DNA from: Candidatus Bathyarchaeota archaeon
GTDB taxonomy: Archaea; Thermoproteota; Bathyarchaeia; Bathyarchaeales; Bathycorpusculaceae
Assembly: GCA_963775895.1 (NCBI GenBank)
Contig: CAVZKL010000010.1
Location: 58,265-122,264, forward strand
DNA: 64,000 nt
Direction of reading: 5' to 3'
A program made the translations under genes and the position numbers. This document shows positions 15,812-64,000 of the stretch, in pieces (the first letter of the stretch is position 1; each line of letters begins with the position of its first letter). The notes below the pieces were generated by a model. It worked only from the letters and a program-made list of their open reading frames with translations. It was not told the DNA's origin and ran no database searches.

Positions 15812-16083
15812 ATCTTTCTATGCTTTCCTTCAACAGCATTATCACTAGAGTGACATTTCTGTTTAATGGTTGACTATCCTTGTTCTACTTAGAAACGGAA
15901 CGACAGTCACACATGACTTAAGGCCAAAATCTGTTCTCTGCTGAAAAGAAGCAAAGCCAGCTACAGCGCGCGCTTGTACATGCCCAGATGCCATACGCTC
16001 AAGCTTATTCATCAGAAAGTCTATGCCACAACAGAATGTATTTGAGCGACAGTTTGACCTTGCTGATGGTCGAGGTTTCAGGA

Positions 16084-17208
16084 ATGCCTTCGAGTTCCAA
16101 AACAAACAGCGAACTTGACTTTGGCAAGGTTCTCAACAGTTCGTTGAATGTTTTCTTCAAGGAAGCGTTGCGAGTTGCCTTGACCCATCCTCGTCAGGCA
16201 GGGTTCTTCGTGCAGACGTTGAGATGGCAGAGAAAGGCAGCAAAGACACGACTGAATTGGGATAAGAAGGGAGTTCACGTTCCACCCATCATCGTACTGA
16301 GCGTGACAAGCAAATGTAACCTTCACTGCCAAGGCTGCTACCACCAAGCGTTGCGCAGCGCCTCCGAACCAGAAATGAGCGATGAAAGACTCGACGGATT
16401 AATCGCCGAAGCCAAAGAACTAGGTGTCTCTTTCATGGTAATCGGGGGAGGAGAACCGTTAACTCGTCCAATAATTCTGGATCTTGCAGAGAAGCATCCA
16501 GCGATCATGTTTCTAGTGTTTACGAACGGTCTTTTGATCGATGAAGCTGTGATCAAGAAAATGTCCAAGAACAGGAATATTGTTCCTTTAGTCAGTTTGG
16601 AAGGCTACGAAAACGACACGGACAAACGACGCGGAGCCGGCGTCTATAAGCAAGCATTGAACGCGATTGCCAAATTGAAAGAGAAGAATATCTTTTGGGG
16701 CAGTTCCTTGACTTTGACCCGAACCAACTTTGCAGACGTAACCGACGAGAACTTCATCAAAAGGTTAGTCGAGACCGGCTGCAAACTTTTCATGCTTGTC
16801 GAATACACTCCAGTCAAGAAAGGAACTGAGGACTGGGTACTCACATCTGAACAAAGAACGGAATTGTTAAGGAAAAGAGACTTGTTCCGAAAGAAGTACC
16901 CCGCCGTGTTCATCGCACTGCCTTGGGATGAAGAAGAGATAGGCGGATGCTTATCATCGGGAAGAGGATTCATCCACATCAGTGCAGAGGGAAACGTGGA
17001 ACCGTGCCCCTTCATTCCTTACTCGGACACAAATCTAAAGCACCTCTCACTTAAAGACGCGCTGCAGTCGAAGATGTTGAAAACAATACGGGAAAACCAT
17101 GGGCAGCTTGAGGAAACACACGGATGCGCCTTATGGGAAAAGAGAGAATGGGTGAAATCACTGACCAAAGAAACAAGAGACAACGTGAGCGGCAGACAGG
17201 ATTCGTAG
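16084..17208 (+). CDS. Radical SAM protein with SPASM/twitch-like C-terminus
   Basis: CNLHCQGC, GGGEP, FTNG, GCLSSGRGFIHI..EGNVEPCPF. Confidence 0.9.
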   Translation: MPSSSKTNSELDFGKVLNSSLNVFFKEALRVALTHPRQAGFFVQTLRWQRKAAKTRLNWDKKGVHVPPIIVLSVTSKCNLHCQGCYHQALRSASEPEMSDERLDGLIAEAKELGVSFMVIGGGEPLTRPIILDLAEKHPAIMFLVFTNGLLIDEAVIKKMSKNRNIVPLVSLEGYENDTDKRRGAGVYKQALNAIAKLKEKNIFWGSSLTLTRTNFADVTDENFIKRLVETGCKLFMLVEYTPVKKGTEDWVLTSEQRTELLRKRDLFRKKYPAVFIALPWDEEEIGGCLSSGRGFIHISAEGNVEPCPFIPYSDTNLKHLSLKDALQSKMLKTIRENHGQLEETHGCALWEKREWVKSLTKETRDNVSGRQDS

Positions 17209-17282
17209 ATCCAATAAATGACTTGGGCGTTAGCGCACGCTGGAAGGTTGACCTCGCTTCACTTTGCGCGCGCTTTTCCGTT

Positions 17283-18361
17283 TCATTTTTTCTGAAATTG
17301 CTGTTTCATCGCTGATTCTACAGTCATGTTTAGCACAATTTCCGCGATATCACTCGCATACTCGGCTGTTCTTCTGATACTCTCTATTATCAATCGTATA
17401 TTTGCGGCTTCATCGGCACCAATGTGCTGAGTAGCAGCGACCGCTTCCTTTTCAATTAACATAACTTCTCTGGTCTTTTCAATCACACTTTCAGCGAGGT
17501 CAAAGTCACATTGGAAAAGAGATTCGATTGCTTTTTCAAACATTGAAATTGATATCGAACTCATTTCAACAATTTTCTGCAAGATCTTCTCTATCGAGGT
17601 TTTTCTTCAACAGTAACACGTTTTCGGCTATGCTGGCGGCGTGGTCAGCCGTTCTTTCAACGGATTTTGTTACTAGTCGGTACCCGAGGCAGTCTCTCGC
17701 TGTGGTCAAACCTATGTCTTTAATGATTCTTGGGTCCTGTATCGCCATTTTGAGTTGGCGGACAATGTACAAATTGAATCTGTCGACTTCATTGTCCGTG
17801 GCGATGACATCTTTAGCGAGGATATGGTCAAGATTTTGTAATCCTGTTATCGCATCCTTATGCATTGACGCCGTTATTATGGACATTCTTCGCAAAGCAC
17901 TTTGAACCGATAGTTCAGGATAGCTTAGCAGGACTTGCAGCGTCAGTTCCGTTGGCGTGTCTATCACTATTTCCGTTCCCACGAGCAGGTCGCGGGCGAA
18001 AGATTTCAATGCGATGCGTTGTCTCGGAGAGAGCTGTTGCCCATCCTTGGCTTTGATGTGCATTATGTTGTAGCCAACCAAGTACGTAGAAACCGTTTTG
18101 CGTATCAAGGGGTCGGGCAGATCTTTTGGGGAGACTAGCGATGTGTGCTTCTTGCGGTTTCTCCTGCTTTGCCAAGTCTGGAGGCATCACCGACAAGGAT
18201 CCATCATCTTCGGTGCGAACAATAAGCGTATTGTTTTTCTTCAGTTGGTTGAGGGCTATCCACTTCTTGGGTAGCGAGATTATGTAAGTTGAGCCGCCCG
18301 TGAGTTGGAGCTTTCTAAGCTCCTCGGTTCGCTTGATTGATGTTGCGGTCAAAATGTGCAC
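17283..18361 (-). CDS. Phosphate uptake regulator, AbrB N-domain plus two PhoU repeats (two frameshifts)
   Basis: RKLQLTGGSTYIISLPKKW; DNEVDRF, VERTADHA; IRRTAEYASDIAE spread over three ORFs. Confidence 0.85.
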
Positions 18362-18403
18362 CTTCCACTAGTTTAGACAGTACTCTATTGTAAGTACTTT
18401 ATC

Positions 18404-18440
18404 TATATAGTTTATGGTGATTATGTGGAGAAACTATATA
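18404..18440. promoter_or_regulatory. 10-bp inverted repeat in the divergent regulator/pstS promoter
   Basis: TATATAGTTT-N17-AAACTATATA. Confidence 0.5.
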
Positions 18441-18491
18441 TGAATTAAAGTCTTCTTGGAGGCAAGAACAATCAAATAGATGTAAAGGAAG

Positions 18492-19600
18492 GTGAAAAAA
18501 CGAATTACAAAATACTAGTTCCAATAGTTGCAATTGCTATCATCGTAATAGGCGCATTCAGCTATCTGTCCCTGTCATCTCCAGCCCAAACGGTAACGCT
18601 AAACGGCTCAGGCGCCACATTTCCGTACCCGCTACTGGACGCTATGATTAAACAATACCAAACAGAAAAAACAAACGTTCAGATCAACTATCAACCGATT
18701 GGCAGCGGAGGAGGTATCTCCGCTCTTGAGGGCAAGACAGTCGACTTCGCTGCCTCAGACGCACCACTGGGGGCAGCTGACATGGCGAAAGCCCCAGGCT
18801 CACTCCATATCCCGGAAACAATCGGTGCCGTCACGGTAGCGTACAATCTGCCCGGTTTTCCTAATGGTCTTCATCTGACTGGTAAAGTTGTGGCCGACAT
18901 CTTCGCTGGCAACGTGACCACGTGGAACGATCCCGAGATCCAAAGCCTTAATTCAAACTTGACGTTGCCTGCCAAAAGCATTCTTATCGTTCATCGGTCT
19001 GATGGTTCCGGAACAACTTTCATCTTCACCGGCTACTTGAACGCGTCAAACAGCGCTGCTTGGCAATCGGCAAAAATCGGACAAGGGAAGACGGTCGCTT
19101 GGCCAGTGGGAATCGGCGCCAACGGTAATACTGGAGTGGCTAGTGTTGTCCAAGGAACGCAATACACGATTGGCTATGTCGAGTTGGCTTACGCGCTACA
19201 GAATAACATGACAGTGGCAGCGATTCAGAACCCAGCAGCTAACTGGGTTGTGCCTTCACTCAATACTATAGAGCTGGCAGTGCAATCAGGGGCTTCAAGC
19301 GGTCTACCGGCAGGCAATCAGAGTTGGTCAAACGTGAACCTTCTCAATGCTCCCGACCCGCAGGCATACCCGATCGTAAGCTTCACTTATCTCCTCGTAT
19401 ACCAGCAACTTGACACAATTTCAGGAATGACTCAGACTAAGGCAACAACCCTTGTGCAATTCCTTTGGTGGGTAGTACACGATGGTCAGCAGAACGCAAC
19501 CAGTCTGGCATATGTGCCGCTTCCGGCGAACGTAGTGCAAATAGATGAAGCCTCTATTCAATCGATAACTTTCAATGGACAACATCTACCAACAAGTTAA
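18492..19600 (+). CDS. pstS: Phosphate ABC transporter substrate-binding protein
   Basis: NGSGATFPYP upstream of the called ATG, GSGGG, RSDGSGTT, YPIVSFTY; start probably GTG 18492 with one A missing in the A-run. Confidence 0.92.
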
Positions 19601-21445: not shown

Positions 21446-21462
21446 GACGACAGAAATGAAAA

Positions 21463-22269: not shown

Positions 22270-22279
22270 GTGAAGAAGA

Positions 22280-26559: not shown

Positions 26560-27042
26560 TTCTCTCTGTTCAATCTTAAACCTTTCTCGCTAGTATTTCC
26601 TGCACTTTTTGGAATTGTCAGCACACGCTAAGGTCAGTACTCCAAAATTTTGCGCTTGAAAGCGCGCGCTCAGGGAAAATCTTTTCACAAGAAAACGATG
26701 AAGCTGAGTTGGTAGACAAAGAAAATTCGTAACGAAGTTCCTTTATGCGTGAACCAAAACCTGAGCTACATTACCCAGCGCGCGCTCGTTACCAATGGTC
26801 TGGCCATCATGAAACACTTGTTGATAATTTGCGAAAACGTCCTTCCTTGAGTATGCGGGTTTTCCAGTTTCCAACTGAGCGCGCGCTAAGAGTCCGACCA
26901 AGGAAATCGAACATACCGAAGCCAAGTCGAAAAACGCCAAGACATAAATCCGCCTCTTTTTTTCTAGCGCGAACTACATTCGTCACAGATTGATTTTGGA
27001 AGCTTGCACAGGTTTAGCCTCAAGGCGAAGTTAAGCGCGTGC

Positions 27043-29298: not shown

Positions 29299-29434
29299 GG
29301 GAGCCACTCATATAAACATTTTTCTTCGACCAAGCGATTTCGCGCGCGCTACCAAGTAGGTTGTAGTGCTGATTATTGAGACTGAAACGTTAAATTACAC
29401 AGTCTTTTGCTATGAATGCACTGCGAGTTAGGAA

Positions 29435-30127
29435 CTAGTAATATCTCTTTAACGGGTTTAGCTGATCTGTTGCCAATTTCACTTGCCGAGGAACTAGTAT
29501 GCCTCGCCAATCCACTCTAATGGTGCTCTTTCTGGAGCTTTTAATATTAACATTGTGCACATGAAGGGCGTAAGCCATTGCACGATCTTGGGGGTTCTCT
29601 ATCTGGAGCATTTGTTTTAGACTTAGGTGCTCGAAGACTCGGCGAATTGGGCGTAAAGAGTTGCCGTGGCAAGAGATAGCAACGTTACCAGGATTTTGTC
29701 GGAGCCATTCTTCAAGCTGCACCAGAAAGGGTAATGTTCGATTTTCAACCATCTTTAGGCTTTCTCCTTCTGGTGGTGGAAAATCGTAGCCTCGGTGAAT
29801 CTTGGCAAACCATTCAGGCCTTTCCATGGCAACCTTGATCTTGCTTTTACCTTGAAGCAAACCATAGCAACGTTCGATGAGCCGGTCGTCCGTGAAAACT
29901 GGAATTGGAGAATGCGTTTCAAGAACGATTTCAAGAGTTTTTCGAGCTCTCTTAAGGTGTGAGGTAAAAGCATAGTCAATCTTGTCTCGCCTGAGTTGTT
30001 TTGCAATCTCTTGTGCTTGCGAAAGTCCTTTCAAAGTAAGTTCTGGGTCGCGCCAGCCCGAGAATATTCCTCGGCTGTTATCAGTTGTCTCAGCATGTCT
30101 AAAAACAAACAACCTGCAAATCATCAA
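29435..30127 (-). CDS. gpmA: Histidine phosphatase family, likely dPGM phosphoglycerate mutase
   Basis: RHAET..N..G.FSGW.D, ERCYG.LQG, PPEGESL, HGNSLR. Confidence 0.8.
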   Translation of the reverse strand: MMICRLFVFRHAETTDNSRGIFSGWRDPELTLKGLSQAQEIAKQLRRDKIDYAFTSHLKRARKTLEIVLETHSPIPVFTDDRLIERCYGLLQGKSKIKVAMERPEWFAKIHRGYDFPPPEGESLKMVENRTLPFLVQLEEWLRQNPGNVAISCHGNSLRPIRRVFEHLSLKQMLQIENPQDRAMAYALHVHNVNIKSSRKSTIRVDWRGILVPRQVKLATDQLNPLKRYY

Positions 30128-30230
30128 CCGCTTCCTCCCGTAGGCGCTAATGCAATCTTCTAATAGAACATATTACTTTTCGCTCACTGTGAACACCCAG
30201 CCTGTTGAACTAAACACGGAGTATGAATAA

Positions 30231-31592
30231 GTGAAGAAAACAAAGATTATCTGTACAATCGGTCCGGCTAGTCTTTCTCGAAACACGCTTAAGAAAATGT
30301 ATCGCGCTGGAATGAACGGCGCCAGAATAAACACAGCTTATGGGACACTTGACCAGTACAGAGTTATCATTAGCAGTCTGCGAGAAGTGGCAGACATCCC
30401 AATAATCATCGATGTTAAGGGGCCTGAAATACGGCTCAAAACAAAAGACAGAAGGACTGTCAACAAAAGCGATATTCTTAAAGTAGGCAAAGACGAAAAA
30501 ATAAGCTTCAACAACAACATCTACGACGATGTGGATGTTGGTGATAACGTTCTTATTGACAATGGTAGGCTAAGAACGCAAGTCGTAGAAAAACAAAAAG
30601 GCGTATTGAAATTGCTTGCAACAACAAGCGGCGAAATAGACGACGGAAAAGGAATTAACATACCTAATAAAAAGTTCGCAGTTCCAACACTCTCAGGTAA
30701 AGATCTGGAAATAATAGATCTCGCAAAAGAGAAAGATGTTGAGTTCATAGCTCTTTCATTTACTAGAAATCCTGAAGACGTGAATAACCTGAAGAAGGTG
30801 ACCAATGGGTTCAAAGGCGCAATCATCGCAAAGATCGAGAATTCCGAAGGTGTCGACAAATTCGATGAAATTCTTGACGTTGCAGACGGAATCATGGTGG
30901 CAAGGGGCGACCTAGGAGTTGAAATAGAACCTGAAAAGGTCCCACATATCCAGAAATTAATAATCAGAAAATGCAATCAGAAGGGAAAGATCGTTGTGAC
31001 GGCAACAGAAATGCTTGAATCCATGACTTACCAGCCAATGCCCACCAGAGCTGAAGTCAGCGATGTTGCCAACGCAATCTTGGATGGAACGGAAGCGACA
31101 ATGCTTTCTGGAGAGACGGCAATAGGGCAGTACCCTGTAGAATCCGTCTTGATGATGTCCAAAATAGCGAACGAAACTGAAAAGTCAGTAGAAGGACAAG
31201 TTGAAGGCGAAGGATTCATCAACATCTCAGACACAATAAGCAAGGCAGTTCAAAGAATATGCCAAGAAATGCCCGTAGGCAAAGTTGTCACGCTAACCAG
31301 GTCAGGCTACACGGCTCGGATGATTTCAAGATTCAAGATTCTTCAACCGATAATCGCCGTTACGCCGAACAACCTTGTCAAGAAACAACTTGAACTGTCG
31401 TTTGGTGTCTACCCAGTGCACATTGATTACCTTAAAGAAGATGACCACATTCGGACAACTGCAAACAAGCTTCATGCAATGGGCCTCATCGGTGACCAAG
31501 ACACAATTCTTTTCACCGCAGCCTTCAGAACCTCCAAACCACATTCTAGCAATCTTATTGAGATACACAACATCAGGGAACTCGCCTGTTGA
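30231..31592 (+). CDS. pyk: Pyruvate kinase
   Basis: KTKIICTIGPAS, IAKIEN, MVARGDLGVE, PTRAEVSDVANA, MLSGETA. Confidence 0.96.
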   Translation: MKKTKIICTIGPASLSRNTLKKMYRAGMNGARINTAYGTLDQYRVIISSLREVADIPIIIDVKGPEIRLKTKDRRTVNKSDILKVGKDEKISFNNNIYDDVDVGDNVLIDNGRLRTQVVEKQKGVLKLLATTSGEIDDGKGINIPNKKFAVPTLSGKDLEIIDLAKEKDVEFIALSFTRNPEDVNNLKKVTNGFKGAIIAKIENSEGVDKFDEILDVADGIMVARGDLGVEIEPEKVPHIQKLIIRKCNQKGKIVVTATEMLESMTYQPMPTRAEVSDVANAILDGTEATMLSGETAIGQYPVESVLMMSKIANETEKSVEGQVEGEGFINISDTISKAVQRICQEMPVGKVVTLTRSGYTARMISRFKILQPIIAVTPNNLVKKQLELSFGVYPVHIDYLKEDDHIRTTANKLHAMGLIGDQDTILFTAAFRTSKPHSSNLIEIHNIRELAC

Positions 31593-31833: not shown

Positions 31834-33114
31834 ATGGAGGAAGAACCTTTGAGAATTGGTTTCTTTGTGTGGGAATATCCACCACAACTCACAGGCGGAC
31901 TTGGAACTTACGCAGAATACATAACCCGCGAGTTTGTCGAGTTGGGGCACGATGTCACCGTTTTCACCCTCAATCCTGGGAATCTTAAAACAACGGAGAT
32001 GCTGAAGGGAGTGGAAGTTCATCGTCCGATGATTGCTGATGCGAGCAACGTCTTTCCAATGTTCGTTGCGGAAGATCTGGTAAAATGGGGAACAAACATT
32101 CGCTTTTTTAGTGATATCTTCATCTACAATGTCCTAAGCGCGACTAAATTCATCAATGGGCTAATCAGGAAAGAAGGTTATAAATTCAACGTGGTCTGTG
32201 TTCATGATTGGCTAAGCAGCATTGCAGGCATCATAGTTAAGAATGAAACAAGTATTCCAGTGGTCTTTCACGTTCACAGCACTGAATGGGGAAGAAGTGG
32301 AGGGCAGGGTTCCCAAGTAGTTTCACATCTTGAGCAGGCGACAGCGCAATTAGCGAACAAAGTGATCACTGTGAGTAATGCAATGAGGGATGACCTGACT
32401 CGCCATGGTTGGAATGAATCTAAGATCAACGTCGTCTGGAATGGCGTTGACCCAGAGCGTTACAACCCGAAAAACTGTAAACAAGAAGAAATCGATGAAA
32501 TAAGAAGAAAATATGAGATACCAAAAGATTGGAATTTGCTGCTGTTTGTTGGCAGACTAACGTGGGTCAAGAGCATCAGAAACTTAATACAAGCTCTTCC
32601 GATGGTTTTAAAGGAGTATCCGAAAACCAAGCTTGTAATTCTAGGTAAAGGGGAAGAACAACAGGACATATTGGAGATGGCAAGCAGACTCGCTGTCAAG
32701 GAGAACGTCATTTGTCGATTTGAGTTTATCCCTGAAGACGAAAGAATTCTGCATTATGCGAGCGCGGACGTCTGCATATTTCCATCAGTATACGAGCCGT
32801 TTGGAATAGTAAGCCTCGAAGCGATGGCCATGGAGAAACCAATAGTAGTCGGTGCTCACGGAGTGGTTGGGTTCCGAGAGCAAGTCGTATCTTCTGGTCC
32901 TGACCAAACAGGAATTCACGTCAACGGTGAAGACCCTGCTGACATAGCCTGGGGGATAGAAGAGGTGTTAAGAGACCCAAAGAGGGCCAAAGCTTGGGGC
33001 GAAAACGGTCGAAAAAGAGTTCTTGATCTTTTCACTTGGAGAAAAGCTGCAGAGCAAACAATTGACGTATACAAGTCACTTGTGAGCGATAAGAGCGAAA
33101 ACGATACTTTCTGA
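31834..33114 (+). CDS. GT4 glycosyltransferase (glycogen/alpha-glucan synthase-like)
   Basis: WEYPP..GGLG, HDW, HSTEWGR, PSVYEPFGIVSLEAM. Confidence 0.9.
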   Translation: MEEEPLRIGFFVWEYPPQLTGGLGTYAEYITREFVELGHDVTVFTLNPGNLKTTEMLKGVEVHRPMIADASNVFPMFVAEDLVKWGTNIRFFSDIFIYNVLSATKFINGLIRKEGYKFNVVCVHDWLSSIAGIIVKNETSIPVVFHVHSTEWGRSGGQGSQVVSHLEQATAQLANKVITVSNAMRDDLTRHGWNESKINVVWNGVDPERYNPKNCKQEEIDEIRRKYEIPKDWNLLLFVGRLTWVKSIRNLIQALPMVLKEYPKTKLVILGKGEEQQDILEMASRLAVKENVICRFEFIPEDERILHYASADVCIFPSVYEPFGIVSLEAMAMEKPIVVGAHGVVGFREQVVSSGPDQTGIHVNGEDPADIAWGIEEVLRDPKRAKAWGENGRKRVLDLFTWRKAAEQTIDVYKSLVSDKSENDTF

Positions 33115-33143
33115 CTGAAAACTCAAGAGAGGAAACATCTCAA

Positions 33144-33290
33144 TTGGAACGATCGTCATCCTACAGATCCGGTCTTACAACTGCTGAGGCAGAGAAGCGA
33201 CTTAAGGAATACGGACATAACGAGATTCCCGAAAAAGGAGTCAGCTCATTGCGAAAGTCTCTAGGCTACTTCTGGAGTCTATTCCCTGGA
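33144..33290 (+). pseudogene. 5' fragment of a P-type (plasma-membrane H+-type) ATPase
   Basis: GLTTAEAEKRLKEYGHNEIPEK (Cation_ATPase_N) then YFW..IPW, ending abruptly at GCGCGCGCTA. Confidence 0.75.
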
Positions 33291-33383
33291 GCGCGCGCTA
33301 CATGGTCGAAAGTTATAAATAATATACAGTCACAGAAAGGAAGTTTCAATCTTGGACTGAAAAGTTTCGGCAGATGAAAAGAA

Positions 33384-35976: not shown

Positions 35977-36053
35977 ACAAGAACTAGTAGCGCGCGCAGA
36001 GAATTCAAGCACAGACACATCCCCAAAACAGAGACACCCAAAGGCCCGCAGAA

Positions 36054-36138
36054 CATATTTGGATCCTAATATTCATGATACATTGAAACCGAGGAGGGGA
36101 GGTACACAATAAGCTTTTTTTCAGCGAATAAACCTTCA
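36054..36138 (-). repeat. ~85-bp dispersed non-coding element, copy 1 (inverted)
   Basis: Reverse complement matches copies 2 and 3 except in the C/T tract. Confidence 0.95.
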
Positions 36139-36206
36139 GCGCACCCAACCCACAATAAACCCATGACCTCCTAGCTCGCGCGCGCGGTTCAACGCCGTCC
36201 AGCGTT

Positions 36207-38320: not shown

Positions 38321-38491
38321 TTTTAAAGCAAGCCACTCGGAGGCAATTGACAAAAGGATACGAAAGTTAGAAGCCAAAATTCCATCTCACTCGCACACCA
38401 ATTGATTCAGACACAGCTGCACTAATTGTCGCTCAAAGCAACAAGCATATGAATTGAAGTACGAAACTTCTAGTGTCGTGATACGAAATGG

Positions 38492-39688
38492 GTGCAGCGA
38501 GACCACGTTAAGCTGCTGATTGGACTTTCTCTCATAATTATCATTGTCTCGGCCGTGGCTGCGTGGCATTTCTTACTCACTTCCTCTAACAGACCGTTTC
38601 TCTGGAAACAGGAGAGTGTTTTCGGCTTTGACAATTTCGGAACATCAACCTACAAAGACAACGTGCTCTACGCCCCTTCAAAAGGCAACAACAAAGTCTA
38701 CGCCATAAACGCTTCAAACGGCGGTGTCATCTGGAGTCAAGAAGTGAGACAGTGCGACGGATCCCCGTACATCGACACAGACGTGATATACGTCGGTGAA
38801 TGCTCGGGTCCCAACGGCGAACCAACGCCCGCCCCCGAGGCAATGGCTCTCAAAAAAGACTCGGGCGAAGTAGAATGGTCCTTTGTCGAACCAAGCGACA
38901 CGCCATGGGTCGGTTCACCAGTGGTCAACGGTGAACTCGTTTATTACACCAGCCTAGGCACTGGAATCTACGCTCTGAACAAGACCAACGGAAATCCAGT
39001 GTGGCATCAGAATGTAGGAAAAGTGGTGTGTTCAGCAGCTTACGACAACGGATTGGTCTTTGTTTCAGCCAACGACCCTCCGGGGCAATACGCGTTCAGC
39101 GCTATGAATGGAGAAATCGTTTGGAATGAAAGCTATGGCTCTTCATGGGACTCTTCGCCTGTGGTCTATGAAGGAACGGTAGTTCAAGTTGCAGGAAACG
39201 TGACAAGAAAACAATATTCAACCTTCGTCTTAAACGAGACAACTGGACAACTAATCAGAAGATTCGAGGGAAGAGGTGGACAAAGCACCCCTCTGGTCCA
39301 TGGCGGCGAGATATTCATTCCAAGCCAAAACTGCGCAATATGGACTTACGACCTTACAACTGGAACAGAACTGTGGCACACCACAAACCTTACAACCAGC
39401 ACACCTAACCTTCTCCGTCCAGACCTGAGCTATTGTAGCCCATTGATTGCAAATGGTACAATCTACTATCAGTCGCTGAGTGGAACGTTCTACGCAATTG
39501 ATGAGAAAACCGGAAACACAATCTGGTCCCGAGAACTCGGAAGCGACGGGTTTGGTAGCCCCAGCGTCGGGGATGGCAAGGTTTTTATCACTAATGATTC
39601 TGCACTGTACGCCTTTGAAATAGCCACCATCAGCAGTGAATGGACAATGTTCTGCAAAAACAGTTTTCACCAGAGCTTTGCTGGATGA
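38492..39688 (+). CDS. Membrane-anchored PQQ-like (BamB-type) beta-propeller protein
   Basis: N-terminal TM; repeated YALN..NG..VW / SP(V/L) motifs. Confidence 0.85.
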   Translation: MQRDHVKLLIGLSLIIIIVSAVAAWHFLLTSSNRPFLWKQESVFGFDNFGTSTYKDNVLYAPSKGNNKVYAINASNGGVIWSQEVRQCDGSPYIDTDVIYVGECSGPNGEPTPAPEAMALKKDSGEVEWSFVEPSDTPWVGSPVVNGELVYYTSLGTGIYALNKTNGNPVWHQNVGKVVCSAAYDNGLVFVSANDPPGQYAFSAMNGEIVWNESYGSSWDSSPVVYEGTVVQVAGNVTRKQYSTFVLNETTGQLIRRFEGRGGQSTPLVHGGEIFIPSQNCAIWTYDLTTGTELWHTTNLTTSTPNLLRPDLSYCSPLIANGTIYYQSLSGTFYAIDEKTGNTIWSRELGSDGFGSPSVGDGKVFITNDSALYAFEIATISSEWTMFCKNSFHQSFAG

Positions 39689-39866
39689 GGCACTTAACGC
39701 GCGTTTGACAGCGCAGACCGGACCCGATCTTTGCTTTGACAGCGTTCATTCTTGCCATACTTGCCAGAGTCGCGATGACAAATAAGATGTCGTTGATACC
39801 GAAAAGCACTGCTTTCACGCCCTTACAGGCTTTCAAGCAGACCACTCCGGCGCGCGCAAGATGCTT

Positions 39867-46017: not shown

Positions 46018-46106
46018 AGGTTTATTCGCTGAAAAAAAGCTTATTGTGTACCTCCCCCTCCTCGGTTTCAATGTATCATGAATATTAGGATCCAAATATG
46101 CCCGGT
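46018..46106 (+). repeat. ~85-bp dispersed non-coding element, copy 2
   Basis: AGGTTTATTCGCTGAAAAAAAGCTTATTGTGTACC-(C/T tract)-CGGTTTCAATGTATCATGAATATTAGGATCCAAATATGCCCGGT. Confidence 0.95.
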
Positions 46107-46235
46107 GTGGCTTAGCGCGCGCTGTGGTGAAGGTTGCCTGGGAAGAGAGATAGAGAATAGTTCTGGAGCGTCTTTTTCCGTAGGTGGACTCCGTTGACTT
46201 TCGTGGAGAAGGAGTGGGAGTGAGGAAGTTGATTG

Positions 46236-54105: not shown

Positions 54106-54150
54106 GCCACGCGCGCGCTAAGCCTGTGTCTCGACTAACTGCGTTTGCCA

Positions 54151-54242
54151 TGAAGGTTTATTCGCTGAAAAAAAGCTTATTGTGTACCCTACCCTCCTCG
54201 GTTTCAATGTATCATGAATATTAGGATCCAAATATGCCCGGT
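54151..54242 (+). repeat. ~85-bp dispersed non-coding element, copy 3
   Basis: Matches copy 2 apart from the C/T tract. Confidence 0.95.
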
Positions 54243-54375
54243 AAAGGATGTTCGGCGAGCGCGCGCTGCTTACAAGCTTCACCGCATTCTAGGTGTGCGC
54301 TGGCAGTGGCTTCAACGTTACACGAAGGTGTGGAAAAGATTTATTAGAACGAAGTTAGGATTGTCGGTGCGGGTC

Positions 54376-55422
54376 ATGGAGACCCAAATAAGCGAGATTC
54401 AGAAACCCGAAAGAGACGCAAAACAAATTCGTATTGACCTTTTGAAGACCACAAAGGACAGGCACAGGCTTCTCGCCAAACCGGAACTGCACGCGATTGT
54501 GAAGATTGAGTCAAGTCTGCTGAAAGGTGCCAGAGAATACTTCGAAAAGCAGGGCTTCAGTGAAATCGTCGTTCCCCACATGACGAAGGCAACGGGGGCA
54601 TGCGAAAACATCGCAACGATGTTTGAAATAGACTATTTTGGACCCAAAAGGTACCTGAGCCAAACCGCACAACTCTACTTGGAAGTTCTAACACCGTTCT
54701 TGGACAAAGTGTGGTGCACTGGACCCAGTTTTCGCGCAGAACCGATAGCCGACGAACGACACTTGACTGAATTCACTCTGATCGAACTGGAATTCGCAGG
54801 AGGCTTTGAGCAACTTCTGCAACACGTTGAAAACGTAATATGTTCGATGATCGACTCTGCACTCAGGGAAAGCGCCAAAGAGCTCACTTTCCTCAACGCT
54901 GACACAGAAAGACTCAGAGGAATCAGAAGACCTTTCCAAAGAATGTCATACACAAAGGCTGTCGAACTGCTCTCAGACTTTCAGGTCGAATGGGGCGACG
55001 ATCTTAAGAGCGCTCATGAAAAGTTGCTCGTAACACTCACTGGCAATCAACCGCTTTTCATCACGCACTTCCCAAAGACCATGAAGTTCTTCAACATGAG
55101 AGAAAACGACGAAAACCCAGCGATTGTTAACAGCGCAGATTTACTGCTGCCTTCAAGCGGCGAAGCAGTCGGCGCAGCCGAAAGAGAGTACAGATACGAA
55201 AAACTTCGTCAGAGACTACAAGGCTCCTCGATGTTCAGACAGCTTGTCGAAAAAGGCGGAAGCATCGAAGACTTCGGATGGTACCTTGAATTCTACGAAA
55301 ACCATGGGATCCCGCACTCTGGATGCGGCATCGGCCTGAACAGGATCACACAATTCGTGCTAAACACGGATGACATAAGAGCAACAACAGCCTTTCCAAT
55401 GAACCGGGAGTCCATTCTGTAA
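54376..55422 (+). CDS. asnA: Archaeal asparagine synthetase A (AsnRS-like catalytic core without anticodon domain)
   Basis: YLSQTAQLY, FRAE...RHLTEFT, GAAERE, HSGCGIGL.R; no OB-fold. Confidence 0.78.
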   Translation: METQISEIQKPERDAKQIRIDLLKTTKDRHRLLAKPELHAIVKIESSLLKGAREYFEKQGFSEIVVPHMTKATGACENIATMFEIDYFGPKRYLSQTAQLYLEVLTPFLDKVWCTGPSFRAEPIADERHLTEFTLIELEFAGGFEQLLQHVENVICSMIDSALRESAKELTFLNADTERLRGIRRPFQRMSYTKAVELLSDFQVEWGDDLKSAHEKLLVTLTGNQPLFITHFPKTMKFFNMRENDENPAIVNSADLLLPSSGEAVGAAEREYRYEKLRQRLQGSSMFRQLVEKGGSIEDFGWYLEFYENHGIPHSGCGIGLNRITQFVLNTDDIRATTAFPMNRESIL

Positions 55423-57033: not shown

Positions 57034-57166
57034 TGGTTTCTACAAATGGTTCTTCCAGCTTTATGTCGTAATGTTCTGCCAAAACGAACATAGCGCGCGC
57101 ACTGGCTGTGCGGGTTGGAAAAACTCTTAGCTTCGGTTCGGCATTGTTTGTGTGAATGGTTGGTAG

Positions 57167-58536
57167 TTGATGATTCGTCTGGGCTTTGACAAGGGAACTC
57201 TGGTTTTGCACGGGCAGGTGGGTACTCCTTACGGAGTATGGGATCCTAGGGTGAATTGTTACCGAATCAAGGCCATGTATTATCGTGAGGTGCTGGCGTA
57301 TCTGAGGGAGAGCAGGCTTGATTTTGTGGATGAGGTTCCTTGTCTTCCGCCTCTGGAATCGTTGAAGGATGTTGTGAAGCTGCGGCCGTACCAGAGTGAA
57401 GCGTTGGAGAGGTGGCGTCTTGCGGGTTTGAGGGGGATTCTGGTGTTGCCGACGGCTGCTGGAAAAACCTACATTGCCTTGAAAGCCATAAGCAGTTTGA
57501 GAACTCAGGCGTTGATCGTTGTTCCGACGTTGGATCTGATAGATCAGTGGAGGGCGCGTGTGCAAGAGTATTTGGGCGTGGACGCTGGAGCCGTGGGCGG
57601 GGGAGAGTGCAAGGTGAAGATGGTAACGGTTTCGACGTACGATTCTGCCTACATTCAGGCTGAGCAGTTGGGAAACAGGTTCATGTTCTTGATTTTCGAC
57701 GAGACTCATCATCTGGCGTCACCGAATTACTTGCAGATAGCTGAGATGTACATCGCACCGTACCGCATGGGGTTGACGGCGACTCTGGAGAGGAGCGACG
57801 AGAGACATGAGCTTCTTCCCAGCTTGATAGGGGATCTGATCTACACGGTGGACGTGGAGACGCTTGCAGGCAAGCATCTCTCGCCGTACTCGCATGAGAA
57901 AGTGTACGTGAACTTGACGTCTGACGAGCAGCAGACGTACGATGCTGAGATGGGCAAGTTTAGGGGTTACTTGAGAGAGAAGGGCATCACGCTGAGGAGC
58001 GCTGAGGATTTCCAGAGGTTCATAATGATCACTGGCAGAGACCGCCTTGCCAGAGAGGCTCTTCTCGCCAGAAACCGAGCCTTGAAGGTTGCTTTGAACT
58101 CTGAAGCAAAACTGGACTATCCTAGCCGAGCAGCTGAATGAGTACAAGGATGAGAAGATCCTGATATTCACTTTGCACAACGATCTCGTGTATGCCATAA
58201 GTCGCAGGTTCCTTTTGCCGGCGTTGACGTACCAGACGCCCAAGGAGGAGCGACGCGAGATAATGGAGAATTTCAGGAGCGGAAAGTACAGGATAATAGT
58301 GACTTCTCAGGTTCTTGACGAGGGAGTGGATGTTCCGGACGCTTCGGTCGGGTTTATTCTGAGCGGAACCGGAAGCACGAGAGAGTACATTCAGCGACTC
58401 GGGAGACTGCTCGAGAAAAGTCGAGGGCAAAAAGGCCAAGATCGTTGAGATAGTGTCGAGAGAAACGGTGGAAGTGAGGACGAGCCGCAGACGCGTGGCA
58501 AAGCGAGTTCCAGGCGAAAGTCATGCTGCCCAGTGA
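57167..58536 (+). CDS. xpb: XPB/Rad25-like SF2 helicase (two frameshifts)
   Basis: LRPYQ, PTAAGKT, DETHH, GLTAT, DEGVDVP, IQRLGR. Confidence 0.88.
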
Positions 58537-60100
58537 ACTTCTCGCGGTGTGGAAAAGGAAAGGTGCGATCACCCCTCGGTACGCGAGGCTTTCTCCGGAG
58601 AACCTGGAAGTTTCCAGCATCCTCATCGATGCTTACAAGCGGCATTTGGGCGAGAGGAAGAAGGAGATCAAACGGGTCGTCGTCGAACTTGAGGATTATG
58701 GTTATGAGTACCGTTTCGTCAGAGGTTTATCTTTGCTTCTTGACAGGAGAAGCAGTTTCAGGCGTGACAGTCGCGGTGACTCCGTTAAGCTTAGGAGAAC
58801 GATTTACGAGGCAACTGGAAAGCTGGGCCCGCCGACAACGTTTGAAGACAGAAGACGGATAGTGGAGTCGGTTGCGTCGGAGTTGAAGTTGACGGCGGAG
58901 GTTGTTGAGGAGCTTTTGTACGCTGACTTGGACCTTGAGCTGATCCTTGACGCTTTTGAACCGCCATCACCGGAAGAGCTGCTGAAACAGTACAACCTGA
59001 GCCTGACGCAGACGCTCATGTTCGACTCAACCGAGATGAGTTTCACGTCAACGGGCAACTGGCAACGCATCTTCCACTCCATCAAGAGAGCAGGGTTGAT
59101 CTACGACATCACTCGGAACGGAAGCTTTCGAGTGCACATAGACGGACCGGGCAGCCTGTTCAAGCTCACGAGAAGGTACGGGACATCCATAGCCAAGCTT
59201 ATCCCGGTCGTTGTTTCAAGCCCAGACTGGAAGATAGAGGCTAAGATACTGTGGAAGTACACGAACGAGATATGCGATTTCAAGCTTGAATGCTCAAAAC
59301 ACGGTGCACTGTTGAAGAAGCAACACGCGGAATCTGTGACTTATGACAGCGCGGTCGAGGAGGATTTTGCTTTGCGTTTTAACGCGTTGGACTCGGGGTG
59401 GCAGCTGAAGAGGGAGCCGGAGCCGATCGTGGCCGGCAAACGAGTGATCATACCGGACTTCTCCCTGGAAAGAGACGGGCTGAAAGTGTTCTTGGAAATC
59501 ATCGGGTTCTGGACTGCGGAGTACTTGAAGCGCAAGGTTGAGAAACTGAGCCTGGTCGACGTTGACATGCTCTTGGCGGTCGATGAGACGTTGGCCTGCG
59601 AGAAAGTTACAAACCTGGAGAAACAGGGAAAACGTGTGATCTACTTCCGTAATAAGATCCCGCTTGCGCCGATCCTGCGTTATCTGCAGGAAGCTTTTCA
59701 AGAAGTACGGGCGAAGCAGATCGAAGTTCTGGGGAACCTGCCCATAACGTTCACGGAGCCCATGGTTAGCTTCAAGGAGTTTGCCGCTAGAATCGGCACG
59801 TCGGTGGAAGCTGCAAAGTATGCTTTAACCGCGAAGAAACCAGAAGGATACGTGATTCTGGACGACGGCCTGGTCAGAATGGACAAGGTGGAACAGGTCA
59901 AGAAGAGAATAGACGAGTACATGAGCCTGAAAGGGCATCTGCCGTACTCGGAGGCAGCGAAAATAATGGAAGATGAGCAGATCAGTGACATGAACACGCT
60001 TTTGACGGCGCTGGGGTACAGAATCCTGTGGCACGGAATCAGCGATGAACAGGCCGAAGTGATCAGAAACAGCAACCAAACGTCTGAGACGCAAACGTAG
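58523..60100 (+). CDS. bax1: Bax1 (DUF790) endonuclease
   Basis: MLPSELL, YADL, YNLSL.Q, GP.SLF...YG, REPEP..IPDF, EIIGFWT.EY. Confidence 0.88.
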   Translation: MLPSELLAVWKRKGAITPRYARLSPENLEVSSILIDAYKRHLGERKKEIKRVVVELEDYGYEYRFVRGLSLLLDRRSSFRRDSRGDSVKLRRTIYEATGKLGPPTTFEDRRRIVESVASELKLTAEVVEELLYADLDLELILDAFEPPSPEELLKQYNLSLTQTLMFDSTEMSFTSTGNWQRIFHSIKRAGLIYDITRNGSFRVHIDGPGSLFKLTRRYGTSIAKLIPVVVSSPDWKIEAKILWKYTNEICDFKLECSKHGALLKKQHAESVTYDSAVEEDFALRFNALDSGWQLKREPEPIVAGKRVIIPDFSLERDGLKVFLEIIGFWTAEYLKRKVEKLSLVDVDMLLAVDETLACEKVTNLEKQGKRVIYFRNKIPLAPILRYLQEAFQEVRAKQIEVLGNLPITFTEPMVSFKEFAARIGTSVEAAKYALTAKKPEGYVILDDGLVRMDKVEQVKKRIDEYMSLKGHLPYSEAAKIMEDEQISDMNTLLTALGYRILWHGISDEQAEVIRNSNQTSETQT

Positions 60101-60304: not shown

Positions 60305-61051
60305 ATGACTTGTATAATTGGAGTGGTTTGCAAAGATGGAATAGTGATGGTCGGCGATAGGAAGGTAAAAGCTGATGAAAGAGCCACATATCAGAATAAG
60401 ATAATTCCTGTAAAGAAGTATGGTAATTTAGTGGTGGCAGCTTCAGGAATAGTAGATGTTCGAGAGAAATTCATTCAGGATATAAAGAATCTGCCCGCTC
60501 TATTGAGAGAAAAAGTACTCAAGAAGGACCCGTCGAGAGGATTTGTAGGACTGGTGGAAGACATTGCTCATAGGCTGTGGGAGATTTACAAGCCTCGATA
60601 CGAAGCCGAGTACATAGATTATGAGAATGATGCTCTTGGGGCGTTCGTTTGTCAAAAAGAGGAGGGGAGTCGACCATCTCTCTACTGTGTCGACTCGGTA
60701 GGAATCTCAAGCAGGGTGGATGACTATATGGTTTTGGGGTCAGGCGAACCATATGCACATACTATTTTGAAACCATGCTACCAAAAGGGGGCAGTCATGG
60801 ACAGGATAGCTGCGATTGGAGCATTTATCATCCTTCTGGTGGACTATTGGAAGATTGATGAATCAATCGGCATAGAAGAGAATGGTAATGCCCAAATATG
60901 GAAATTCCCCAACAAATCGGACCCATATGAAGTACGCGGCGCGGAACTCGAAGAAATCATGAGACAGGCGCGTGAATTATTGCAAAGATTCAGTGTCTTT
61001 CTCTTGATAGGAGAAATGCCGTCAGAGATAGCACACATGTTGGAGAAGTAA
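60305..61051 (+). CDS. Stand-alone proteasome-beta-like Ntn hydrolase
   Basis: M-TCIIG..CKDGIVMVGDRK, K, SG, LGSG; Thr directly after Met. Confidence 0.75.
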   Translation: MTCIIGVVCKDGIVMVGDRKVKADERATYQNKIIPVKKYGNLVVAASGIVDVREKFIQDIKNLPALLREKVLKKDPSRGFVGLVEDIAHRLWEIYKPRYEAEYIDYENDALGAFVCQKEEGSRPSLYCVDSVGISSRVDDYMVLGSGEPYAHTILKPCYQKGAVMDRIAAIGAFIILLVDYWKIDESIGIEENGNAQIWKFPNKSDPYEVRGAELEEIMRQARELLQRFSVFLLIGEMPSEIAHMLEK

Positions 61052-61083
61052 GCACTGCTGATGCAGAATATGCTACTGCTGTC

Positions 61084-63153: not shown

Positions 63154-63265
63154 AAAATCTCGCCCGTAGCACACGCGGAATTGATGGCTCAGAATCTTTT
63201 CGATTTCTACAGAACCAAAGCATAAAGCGTCAATTATTTTTATTTGAATGATTACAATCAGTGTT

Positions 63266-63771
63266 ATGAGTGAGTACATTCTCGCAAGGAACAAGTTCAA
63301 GCCATATGAAAGAGTGAAATTTCTGCTCATCGCTGAGTCTCCTCCTGCTTCTGGAGGATATTTCTATTTCGACTGGACAACCGGAAAGGATAGCCTTTTC
63401 AGGGAGACAATGAAAGCACTGGTCTGTTTCCAGAAGATCAAGAAAATGTCAAAGGGTTTCGATAAGAGACCTTTGCTGAAAGAGTTTCAGTCGCAAGGCT
63501 TCTTCGTTGTTGATGTATGTTATGAGCCCGTTGATAAGCTGCAAACCAGAGAGAAAAGACGTTATCACAAGGAAATTCCAAGACTAATCGCTGACACACG
63601 GAAGTTGGATCCTGAAGGAATTGTTATCGTGAAATCTAGCTATATTTGCTTCTGTGAAAGAGGGACTTGATAAAGCCGGCCTTGGCAAAAAGATTCTAAG
63701 TGAGAGAGCTACCATTTCCGTCTCATGGCAACCAGAAGATTTATCGACAGATGTTAAGAGAGCTGACGTGA
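63266..63771 (+). CDS. Uracil-DNA glycosylase-superfamily-like protein (frameshifted)
   Basis: LLIAESPP..GGYFY at N-terminus and PFPSHGNQ at C-terminus. Confidence 0.6.
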
Positions 63772-64000
63772 CCTCTTTGATGCGCGCGCTACAGCTGCAG
63801 CCAGGCGCTCAGGGGCTTTAAGTCTTGTGTCACGATCAGCGGTTAACTGTCTCTACGATATAGAGACACTTGCACGCTGTTTTCCCATGTCTTAAGCTTC
63901 CCTGGATCTTAAGCGGTGTAATAAGTCGTGAGGACACGACTTCACGGGTTTCCACGCCCTATTCGAAGCCTTCGAAATGGAAAAACTTGGAAAACCACGA

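Follow-up and report, generated by a model that had tools for sequence, protein, structure and literature searches.

The octamer GCGCGCGC is on balance probably a break-and-join site that is used repeatedly in the variable genome of this Bathyarchaeia lineage, and the evidence supports the motif as a junction, target or scar site. The octamer would delimit, at one end or at both, segments of 0.2–6 kb (genes, gene fragments or non-coding pieces) that are cut, copied, inserted or lost, and it would therefore come to separate modules unrelated to each other, in most cases a short way past a stop codon, a position in which it would be harmless. Bathyarchaeia are abundant, uncultured archaea whose genome change is little understood. 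About half of each compared genome is mosaic DNA, the pieces of which are common between species at an identity above that of most core genes, and the 8-bp word marks many seams of this mosaic.

In the 64-kb window, i.e. the whole stretch of 64,000 nucleotides that was analysed, the octamer occurs 15 times (starts at 15966, 17266, 26662, 26778, 26879, 29342, 33291, 35990, 36178, 39850, 46115, 54111, 54259, 57093 and 63782), compared to 0.59 copies expected from dinucleotide shuffles, with a largest shuffle count of 3 and none of 100 shuffles reaching 15. Eight copies are part of the 10-mer GCGCGCGCTA/TAGCGCGCGC, for which 0.07 occurrences are expected (largest 1). All of these octamers and 10-mers had been listed in an earlier sequence-only reading and were recovered at the same places, as was the absence of the octamer from the first 15.9 kb, no perfect copy being found in the window upstream of 15966. 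Ten near-matches named there fared less uniformly: eight correspond to one-mismatch sites no more than 2 nt away (17233, 26025, 27035, 37275, 47311, 52577, 60105 and 60190), while 26965 and 39697 exceed one mismatch. By gene calls from crude ORF scoring, 14 of the 15 sites lie outside coding sequences, as had been proposed. The remaining site (54259..54266) lies 45 nt within the longest ORF 54214-55422, the first 54 codons of which look spurious because an internal Met is present at codon 55 and the Pfam match runs from residue 80; the site would thus precede the probable true start of a class II tRNA-synthetase-like gene (Met55) by about 110 nt. The earlier label "accessory region" is fair as well. 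With orthology based on a single genome pair, 16/18 ORFs in positions 1–15900 have an ortholog in the related genome G001 and 10/17 adjacencies are kept, compared to 26/50 ORFs and 11/49 adjacencies in positions 15901–64000. Scans of the window for tRNAs and Rfam families returned nothing, no Rfam family reaching the threshold.

The host genome G000 (1.77 Mb, 48% GC), from a soil archaeon, contains 254 sites, which amount to 508 on both strands compared to 39.7 expected under an order-3 Markov model. This 12.8-fold excess makes GCGCGCGC the most over-represented of all 8-mers, and the enrichment suspected from the window thus holds against a higher-order background. All ten other genomes of the genus carry 29–464 copies each, compared to 0–7 copies in 18 of 20 more distant relatives, the other two having 14 (G012) and 53 (G024). 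Among 201 genomes sampled from the class, 14 genomes spread over four families are motif-rich, as picked by eye with a forward count of at least 90 and a forward/control ratio of at least 1.6. In G001, the sites (about 430 runs) are dispersed across the whole variable genome.

The conserved sequence extends no further than 2 nt of flank (432 oriented flanks of 216 eight-base sites). These weak symmetric flanks, with A before and T after the octamer and then T/A, would fit recognition by a dimeric protein. Exactly 8 nt long are 216/234 runs, and intergenic alternating G/C runs of lengths 6 to 11 number 133, 78, 131, 72, 20 and 0, with a secondary peak at 8–9 and none of 11 or more. The run length is fixed and slippage is therefore not indicated; a dinucleotide microsatellite was ruled out by this distribution, and a MITE or REP-type repeat by the unconserved flanks. 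By itself, the octamer is unable to fold into a stem-loop. An 80-nt repeat, one copy of which lies 15 nt from the TAGCGCGCGC site at 46113..46122 (minus strand, convergent region), was rejected as motif carrier, a perfect motif being present within ~100 nt in just 5/36 copies. Conceivably, a TA-targeting cut-and-paste element with GCGC ends could leave the motif as an excision footprint (TA+GCGC+GCGC+TA), in line with the eight TA-containing 10-mers in the window and the preference for T then A on the flanks. Yet TA is found on both sides at 14/234 sites and on neither side at 146/234, the DNA on either side of a site is unrelated instead of contiguous, and G001 harbors no multi-copy element of IS size, its largest repeats being a 6-kb tandem duplication and single pairs. 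Such a footprint is hence a highly doubtful origin.

Although ORFs cover 81% of G000, 204/254 sites are intergenic and 41/254 lie within ORFs. Density peaks at 2.28 per kb in the first 10 nt past stop codons and is lowest 0–60 nt upstream of starts (0.2–0.5 per kb), and among intergenic regions it follows the order convergent (1.15), tandem (0.55) and divergent (0.36 per kb). The TAG of TAGCGCGCGC even serves as the stop codon of nine genes. These preferences, together with the palindrome and its symmetric A/T flanks, are what may be expected if the octamer were a functional signal located at the 3' ends of genes or in the spaces between them, for instance the binding site of a dimeric protein acting as insulator, silencer of newly acquired genes or factor-dependent terminator. 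Such a signal would matter mainly for accessory genes, and its coincidence with junctions would arise merely because gene ends are module ends. However, none of 45 convergent and 68 divergent intergenic regions with conserved adjacency in G000 contains the motif, even though terminators or boundaries would be needed there too. An intrinsic terminator was rejected: TTTTT follows within 60 nt of the stop in 6/71 motif-bearing gene ends compared to 175/1034 others, so that the T5 tract is rarer with the motif. A functional signal is accordingly regarded as unlikely, also in view of the junction data described below.

The distribution over conserved and broken synteny is more telling. With G000 as reference, the motif is present in 2/401 intergenic regions of conserved adjacency (0.06 per kb), in 18/181 at broken adjacencies and in 142/792 that adjoin ORFs without ortholog; with G001 as reference, the tally of motif-bearing intergenic regions reads 7/383, 0/67 ("near"), 6/29, 26/134 and 258/1170. 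Overall, conserved synteny has 0.06–0.14 sites per kb, as opposed to 0.4–1.0 at broken adjacencies or beside ortholog-less neighbours, and in 25-kb bins of G001 motif count and ortholog fraction are inversely correlated (Spearman -0.54, p 2e-8). The unequal densities in coding and intergenic DNA and in core and variable DNA on which the earlier proposal depended are thus real. They would also arise if mutation or repair were biased, as has been suggested for HIP1 or in the form of very-short-patch repair tied to a methylase, and the motif accumulated where selection is weak, i.e. in non-conserved intergenic DNA. This would suit the patchy, lineage-specific motif-rich state, the accumulation in proportion to intergenic length (counts per region are Poisson, without added clustering of sites) and the excess of transitions among intergenic one-mismatch variants (452 compared to 254 expected; transversions 417 compared to 416). 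Biased mutation is nevertheless improbable. A drive by an m5C methylase (PF00145) and very-short-patch repair was rejected, since PF00145 is missing in G000 and in 8/10 other genomes of the genus and present in only 2/10. Moreover, 13 kb of conserved divergent intergenic DNA with zero motifs would be left unexplained, as would the homology ends of near-identical copies. Two sites with orthologs in the sister-species contig L204 point the same way: at the TAGCGCGCGC site 35988..35997 (minus strand, 13 nt past a HAD gene stop) two octamer positions are changed in L204, and at the GCGCGCGC site 36178..36185 (21 nt past a PAP2 gene stop) two transitions are found, both in gap-free alignments. These differences are substitutions away from the motif, with no sign of convergence. 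Motif copies decay through C>T and G>A changes, and this erosion by transitions, with no constraint seen, likewise speaks against a functional signal.

Pieces of the variable DNA are shared between species. An island in G001 starts with a PF00589 tyrosine recombinase gene, followed by GT4, flavodoxin, GNAT, CxxCxxCC, VTT and SSB-like genes on both strands, with the motif between nearly every pair. Its modules are present in other genomes of the genus at 86–94% identity, compared to ~70% for most core matches, and its segment borders, as read by eye, lie mostly at perfect or decayed motifs; the motif is missing at many module borders. The richness of these modules in a genus-specific word might suggest a DNA-uptake or "kin" tag, whereby tagged fragments are preferentially taken up or recombined and DNA exchanged within the genus becomes enriched. 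Known DNA uptake sequences do tag DNA for preferential uptake, but they are enriched in core DNA and genes, opposite to the conserved syntenic core seen here, which is devoid of the motif. As a tag would also not account for exact homology ends at the word, this explanation is very improbable.

Such homology ends support the break-and-join reading. Among HSPs with an identity of 95% or more and a length of 200 bp or more, the motif was found within -10 to +15 nt of recent duplication ends in 8/32 cases (G001) and 7/34 cases (G000), compared to 0.75 (largest 3) and 1.0 (largest 5), respectively, for random positions 0–30 nt past stops. Copies of 95–100% identity thus lose homology abruptly at the motif well over a stop-proximal control, which is not expected from a functional signal, and breakpoints coincide with the motif as the sequence-only reading had predicted. 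Among recent duplication ends, no more than roughly one in five to one in four carries the motif. The proportion is 27/222 (G001) and 9/79 (G000) for copies of 85–95% identity and 6/432 and 0/35 for those of 78–85%; for older duplicates, part of the coincidence may be positional because the motif and homology ends both favour gene ends. Inspection of 42 boundary pairs by eye revealed ~12 with the motif or a one-mismatch version in both copies and homology ending at its far edge, as well as ~24 with the motif in one copy only, 0–5 nt past the homology end. Pseudogene fragments display a similar association: a motif was found no more than 3 nt away from 20 fragment ends, compared to 9 expected, and 17/20 are internal truncations. 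Truncated gene fragments that abut the motif are a further argument against a functional signal.

Several junctions can be followed in the window itself. A radical SAM/SPASM gene (15988..17208, plus strand; Pfam), which has no reciprocal-best ortholog in G001, is bracketed by two motif copies. The site at 15966..15973 forms the left border of the segment: homology to G005 begins at query position 969, within this site, and a G008 fragment begins 6 nt past it. At the right, the site 17266..17273 lies in a convergent intergenic region with two stop codons 57 nt and 9 nt away, and flank homology to G001 and G008 starts 7 nt past it. In G001 the left and right flanks are separated by 126 kb, and in G008 by ~427 kb; in three genomes, the segment has its borders at motifs with different neighbours in each. 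The G005 equivalents of both sites are two-mismatch versions, and this sharing in decayed form at 79% identity counts in favour of a functional signal. A 1516-bp segment with a PQQ beta-propeller gene that has no RBH in G001 (38340..39855) is replaced in L204 by 18 unrelated nt, as determined by blastn and sequence reading, a difference compatible with either insertion or deletion. Its right border falls within the GCGCGCGC site 39850..39857, which is located in a convergent region 9 nt past a ROK gene stop. Templating of the 18-nt filler from the window was rejected, no match being found there at up to three mismatches. Further upstream, an 81-nt segment (33209..33289) is missing in contigs from two further studies (runs X1 and X5, joint 33208>33290), and this strain-level gap ends 1 nt before the GCGCGCGCTA site at 33291..33300 (plus strand), upstream of an ammonium transporter gene. 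The same motif cuts off a pseudogene fragment with the N-terminal 58 residues of an H+-ATPase-like protein (33114..33287, plus strand), which matches residues 8-62 of G001 protein b1777 (45% identity, E 5e-11, tblastn); the remainder of the gene was sought elsewhere in the genome and not found. In G001, a segment at 869105-870336 ends in a motif, in place of a 28-nt linker that is kept in G009, G002, G005 and a G001 paralog. These are the three indels adjoining a motif that were seen between strains or species. The earlier proposal of a crossover site, target or scar of module insertion and deletion is hence supported as regards junctions but does not extend to simple indels inside conserved blocks, where the motif was present at 0/124 empty sites, in no case on both borders, and target-site duplication was rejected (0/124).

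How a break-and-join site might operate is suggested by the homology ends. Because homology either spans the whole motif to its far edge or stops 0–5 nt before a complete motif, we infer that both products of a break keep the complete octamer. A nuclease or integrase could make staggered cuts, one at each outer edge of the palindrome, with the ends then being filled in; a fragment captured in this way would have a copy on either side, so that sites would increase in number with every event and be carried between species along with the modules. Possibly, although this is put forward tentatively, a putative nuclease or integrase that cuts the outer edges of GCGCGCGC thus constitutes a self-propagating archaeal cut-and-join system, in which fill-in turns fragments into site-flanked modules. 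It would represent a cassette system with an 8-bp site, but without attC, terminal inverted repeats or a known transposase, whose modules move within and between species, and the patchy occurrence of motif-rich genomes in four or more Bathyarchaeia families would trace horizontal spread of the enzyme.

The searches tied no recombinase, HUH/RAYT transposase or GCGCGC methylase, as had been envisaged earlier, to the motif. Matches to Y1/RAYT (PF01797) occurred in none of five motif-rich genomes (G000, G001, G008, G219 and G080), with a positive control in 6/14 reference genomes, and the cut-off for TnpB was reached in none of the five. A restriction-modification target would call for a cognate methyltransferase and endonuclease throughout the lineage; of the methylase families covered, PF00145 is patchy, as described above, and N4/N6 methylases showed no consistent pattern across genomes, PF01555 giving a weak partial match only, in G000 and G005. 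Tyrosine recombinase copy number is high in large genomes of the genus, yet also in motif-poor genomes, and the motif-rich bins of G001 are spread chromosome-wide, mostly without PF00589 matches. Cas1/casposase was likewise dismissed: the genus has mostly broken Cas1 fragments, intact genes occur in other genera, and no link to the motif emerged. Ku/LigD is encoded in 8/11 genomes of the genus compared to 1/20 others; as a partner, end joining by Ku/LigD was rejected, since in the class sample (n=201) Ku is found in 3/14 motif-rich and 52/187 other genomes.

Among known systems, attC, REP and HIP1 are the closest analogues, and their tested defining features fail here, except that the motif shares with HIP1 the 8-bp top over-represented palindrome. 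Integron cassettes are similar in that unrelated small genes form arrays, each followed by a recombination-associated site, with modules common to several species; integrons have reportedly been found in archaea. An attC is a 57–141-bp imperfect inverted repeat with conserved core sites. Instead of a folded site of 60–140 bp, a bare 8-bp palindrome without conserved arms is observed here, and instead of a single co-oriented array beside an integrase, sites appear scattered through the variable genome, among genes of either orientation. Furthermore, the junctions show nibbling and truncated genes, which are not produced by site-specific recombination. REP/BIME/REPIN sequences also form hundreds of extragenic GC-rich palindromic copies that are enriched past gene ends and between convergent genes. 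A REP/REPIN is a 20–40-nt imperfect palindrome that forms a hairpin and is associated with a RAYT transposase, whereas the conserved unit here is 8–10 nt, unable to fold alone, and no Y1/RAYT gene was found in the five motif-rich genomes searched. REPs are known insertion targets (PMC1525189). HIP1 of cyanobacteria (GCGATCGC) resembles the motif as a GC-rich, lineage-specific palindrome with no settled function. HIP1 is, however, common in coding sequence and has a CGATCG methylase associated with it, in contrast to the mostly intergenic copies (204/254), motif-free conserved regions and inconsistent methylases observed here. In Acinetobacter plasmids, accessory-gene modules are bounded in varied contexts by pdif, a short repeated 28-bp XerC/D site with two arms; here, just 8–10 bp are defined and junctions are imprecise. 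Finally, yeast mitochondrial GC clusters are likewise short, GC-rich, palindromic and intergenic, and these mobile sequences mark the junctions of recombination and deletion events, but they are 30–50-bp elements with their own families in an AT-rich organelle, unlike 8 bp in an archaeal chromosome of 48% GC. The portions covered of the literature on the octamer in archaea, on palindromic, intergenic or mobile sequences of Bathyarchaeia and on archaeal highly iterated palindromes contained no description of the motif. If a dedicated enzyme indeed cuts or integrates at the word, Archaea would have a route for exchanging gene modules that is new, and the enzyme could possibly serve as an 8-bp-specific tool. 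If there is none, the motif would still be of practical use as a marker, both of the variable genome and of rearrangements that took place recently in these metagenome-assembled genomes.

The other copies in the window occupy comparable surroundings. Three of them (26662..26669, 26778..26785 and the GCGCGCGCTA site 26879..26888, plus strand; all sequence matches) lie within one 931-nt gene-free stretch. Further GCGCGCGCTA sites on the plus strand are located at 29342..29351, between the end of a histidine-phosphatase gene and the start of a 100-aa ORF, at 54111..54120, 5 nt past a stop codon, and at 63782..63791, 111 nt past a 140-aa ORF and close to the contig end. The TAGCGCGCGC site at 57091..57100 (minus strand) forms the upstream border of a conserved XPB-91aa-Bax1 cluster, and in five of eight motif-dense related loci compared (L007, L040, L035, L024 and L008) a motif is likewise found 82–743 nt upstream of XPB, next to unrelated upstream genes.

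The octamer GCGCGCGC, an 8-bp palindrome, marks the boundaries of DNA segments that were recently copied, inserted or lost in the variable part of the genome. Its accumulation in the window, as noticed in the sequence-only reading, is confirmed: all 15 positions listed there carry the exact octamer, compared with 0.59 expected and a maximum of 3 in dinucleotide-preserving shuffles, and the 10-mer with TA is present at the eight positions named for it (0.07 expected). The first perfect copy of the window starts at 15966, with none before. Eight of the ten near-matches are one-mismatch sites, while those at 26965 and 39697 are not. The octamers were also said to lie outside coding sequences, which holds for 14 of the 15 when measured against our own ORF calls; the exception at 54259 lies within ORF 54214-55422, where it falls in the dubious first 54 codons, upstream of a Met at codon 55 and of a Pfam match that begins at residue 80. 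The label “accessory region” is likewise apt. Positions 1-15900 are core-like, with an ortholog for 16 of 18 ORFs and 10 of 17 adjacencies kept, and the remainder is a mosaic (26 of 50 ORFs, 11 of 49 adjacencies). Genes of the window include XPB, Bax1, XPD, pyruvate kinase and an ammonium transporter, and scans of the window for tRNAs and Rfam families gave no match.

The source genome (G000; 1.77 Mb, 28 contigs, 48% GC), in which the window forms the last 64 kb of contig C10, contains 254 octamers in 234 runs, whose length is 8 nt in 216 cases, 10 nt in 17 and 14 nt in one. Against an order-3 Markov background, 508 both-strand counts compare with 39.7 expected, and GCGCGCGC is the most over-represented 8-mer of G000; it is therefore a feature of the genome and not only of the window. 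Long-read metagenome runs also contain the species, at about 98% identity. Copy numbers range from 29 to 464 in the 10 other genomes of the genus; the maximum is reached in the single-contig genome G001 (2,346,764 bp), where 388 of the 464 octamers lie outside ORFs. Among 20 more distant relatives, 18 have 0-7 octamers, G012 has 14 and G024 has 53. Across 201 sampled Bathyarchaeia genomes, 14 were judged by eye to be motif-rich (forward count ≥90 and ≥1.6-fold that of a reversed-word control). As these are spread over four families, the motif-rich state is patchy. Octamer numbers equal to or above that of G000 are reached in other lineages, where G080 (a single contig), G089, G105 and G219 harbor 601, 373, 325 and 262 octamers, respectively, with the reversed-word control well below.

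Each strand of the motif is preferably followed on its 3′ side by T (0.51) and then A (0.41), and information further out amounts to at most 0.03 bits, which led us to reject a part of a longer repeat. Slippage was dismissed on account of the fixed run length in intergenic DNA, where alternating G/C runs of 6 to 11 nt number 133, 78, 131, 72, 20 and 0, respectively. A separate 80-nt repeat occurs in the window at 36054-36134 and, on the minus strand, at 46018-46100 and 54151-54236. Of its 36 copies in G000 (about 88-100% identity), only five lie about 100 nt or less from a perfect octamer, and its 45-50-nt cores are found in most genomes of the genus. Some copies show a TATA-like box, GGAGG and ATG, and the repeat, for which neither an Rfam match nor a fold signal was obtained, may represent a mobile promoter or leader.

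By our own scoring, G000 comprises 1874 ORFs covering 81% of the genome. Outside these lie 204 of the 254 octamers, nine straddle an ORF end and 41 lie inside, many of them near an end. Octamer density is 1.15 per kb in convergent, 0.53-0.56 in tandem and 0.36 in divergent regions; normalized for available positions, it reaches 2.28 per kb within 10 nt past stop codons and 0.2-0.5 in the 60 nt upstream of starts. From this gene-end placement alone, a 3′-end signal looked the likeliest reading, in keeping with the density peak right after stop codons, the convergent excess and the TAG of TAGCGCGCGC, which serves as the stop codon of nine genes. However, conserved convergent and divergent regions also need terminators and boundaries, and where the flanking genes are adjacent orthologs in both G000 and G001, the motif is missing from all 45 convergent and all 68 divergent G000 regions. 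A generic transcription signal therefore misfits. A T-tract terminator was rejected because T5 tracts are rarer after gene ends with the motif (6/71) than after those without (175/1034).

The genome-wide synteny comparison is based on this one genome pair, with gene calls and orthology from our own rough procedures (1154 reciprocal best hits, median identity 74%), and reveals that the motif is unequally distributed between conserved and variable DNA. In G000, it occurs in 2 of 401 intergenic regions with conserved adjacency (0.06 per kb) versus 142 of 792 with at least one flanking ORF lacking an ortholog; the corresponding values for G001 are 7/383 and 258/1170. Regions with orthologs two to three genes apart contain it in 1/58 (G000) and 0/67 (G001) cases, those with broken adjacency in 18/181 and 6/29, and G001 regions whose orthologs lie on different G000 contigs, a class not applicable to G000, in 26/134. 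Orthologs are present for 15 of 50 genes with a motif within 30 nt downstream, compared with 618 of 1055 other genes, and in 25-kb bins of G001 motif count and ortholog fraction are anticorrelated (Spearman -0.54).

The sequence-only reading had proposed that the motif is the crossover or target site, or the scar, of module insertion and deletion. This junction inference is supported by duplication ends, pseudogene fragments and indels at the motif. When G001 and G000 are compared with themselves, homology of duplicated segments often breaks off at a motif, defined as lying -10 to +15 nt from the end of a matching segment pair of at least 200 bp. For pairs of 95-100% identity, this applies to 8/32 ends in G001 and 7/34 in G000, whereas random positions in the 30 nt after stops gave 0.75 (largest 3) and 1.0 (largest 5), respectively. 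The counts are 27/222 and 9/79 at 85-95% identity, and 6/432 and 0/35 for old paralogs of 78-85%. Divergence cannot account for identity that falls off entirely from about 98%, so these are true junctions. Among 42 boundary pairs read and classified by eye, about 12 have the motif or a one-mismatch form in both copies, with divergence at its far edge, and about 24 have it in one copy only, 0-5 nt past the homology end; in one family, three copies possess module-to-motif tails of differing length. Of the ends of intergenic pseudogene fragments, 20 lie no more than 3 nt from a motif (9 expected), and 17 of these are internal truncations. Speaking against the junction model, just one-fifth to one-quarter of the ends of recent duplications bear the motif, and it was involved in none of 124 simple indels within conserved blocks. 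G001 also contains a 6-kb tandem duplication of 99.95% identity (2096997-2108976) and, around 1,059-1,070 kb, a stretch with few genes and internal repeats.

For several events the other state is known. Window positions 33209-33289 are missing in contigs of two other studies, and the gap stops 1 nt before motif 33291; a pseudogene corresponding to residues 8-62 of an H+-ATPase-like protein ends just before the same motif, at 33287. L204, a sister-species contig from a metagenome (about 90-92% identical), aligns to 42959-39856 and 38339-35604, with 18 unrelated nt in place of 1516 bp carrying a PQQ propeller gene. The break lies inside motif 39850, of which the first GC is shared, and the change may be either an insertion or a deletion. 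In G001, 1232 bp (869105-870336) with a motif at the end directly against the flank replace a 28-nt linker. The linker is retained in G009, G002, G005 and one G001 paralog, and the insertion is hence the derived state. Motifs 15966 and 17266 lie on either side of the radical-SAM gene at 15988-17208, whose left and right neighbors are separated by 126 kb in G001 and by about 427 kb in G008. Motif 15966, inside which homology to G005 begins, has a counterpart with two mismatches in G005, next to different upstream DNA, and a truncated G008 copy begins 6 nt past the position of the motif and shows a near-motif as well as a tail shorter by 8 nt. The trio of XPB, a 91-aa ORF and Bax1 (57167-60100) is conserved in every relative examined (loci L004-L040), as is a promoter-like block that precedes XPB by about 40 nt, while the genes on both sides differ. 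In a comparison of eight motif-dense related loci, five have a motif 82-743 nt upstream of XPB and three have one 60-250 nt downstream of Bax1.

The sites also decay. The L204 counterparts of sites 35990 and 36178 align without gaps and have two substitutions each. In intergenic DNA of both genomes, one-mismatch variants arising by transition number 452 versus 254 expected (2.2-3.5-fold at internal positions), whereas those arising by transversion show no excess (417 versus 416), and it follows that copies are made perfect and then decay. Many borders of G001-island modules bear decayed forms. These modules recur in other genomes of the genus in differing order at 86-94% identity, more than most core matches, which lie at roughly 70%. 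At 29435-31592 (G001 115262-117416), the paired genes for histidine phosphatase and pyruvate kinase have 81-83% nucleotide identity to G001, G002 and G008, again far more than most other core matches (roughly 70%).

Mechanistically, each side of a break would retain the full octamer, which would fit a palindrome that is cut in a staggered manner at its outer edges and then filled in; a captured fragment would carry an octamer copy at either end, so that the site multiplies, and the symmetric flanks would suit a dimeric protein. The arrangement works like a cassette or module system as in integrons, but no attC-like structure was found for the motif. The pdif modules constitute another system of similar arrangement. 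REP and HIP1 are likewise hyperabundant palindromes; however, RAYT, as well as TnpB, is absent from the five motif-rich genomes searched, and the motif lacks the in-gene abundance of HIP1 and a consistent methylase, the methylase families searched in the genus being absent or inconsistent and none tied to the motif. Tyrosine recombinases are also found in motif-poor genomes. Most Cas1 copies of the genus are broken, with fragments or in-frame stops at C1:8615-8770 in G000 and at 227778, 862528, 2026633 and 2258379 in G001; a 67-aa zinc-ribbon ORF accompanies some fragments, and intact Cas1 genes are kept in other genera of the order. No enzyme for the motif was thus identified among the RAYT, TnpB, methylase, Cas1, tyrosine recombinase and Ku/LigD candidates, and titles and abstract openings in the literature yielded no description of it. 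We classify the motif as a variant of site-associated module shuffling.

A complete end-joining operon encoding a LigD primase-polymerase, Ku, an ATP ligase, a 3′-phosphoesterase and a DUF72 protein is present in G000 (contig C22, about 26.6-30.5 kb; locus L287, 5653-9453) and in G001 (locus L288). It looked genus-linked among close relatives, yet was rejected as the explanation of the motif, given that Ku occurs in 3 of 14 motif-rich versus 52 of 187 other genomes. The operon may nevertheless do the joining in this genus. The ligase, a single 464-aa ORF in G001, is broken up into two overlapping ORFs in G000. At L287 2191-5107, a gene for a class I tRNA synthetase that has a leucyl-type editing domain is divided into ORFs of 408 and 565 aa, reflecting either a frameshift or an assembly error, and several P-type ATPase genes of G000 likewise align in pieces. 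The presence of Ku in 55 of the 201 sampled Bathyarchaeia genomes is worth recording beside the only 19 archaeal Ku sequences in OrthoDB that are reported in PMC11936186.
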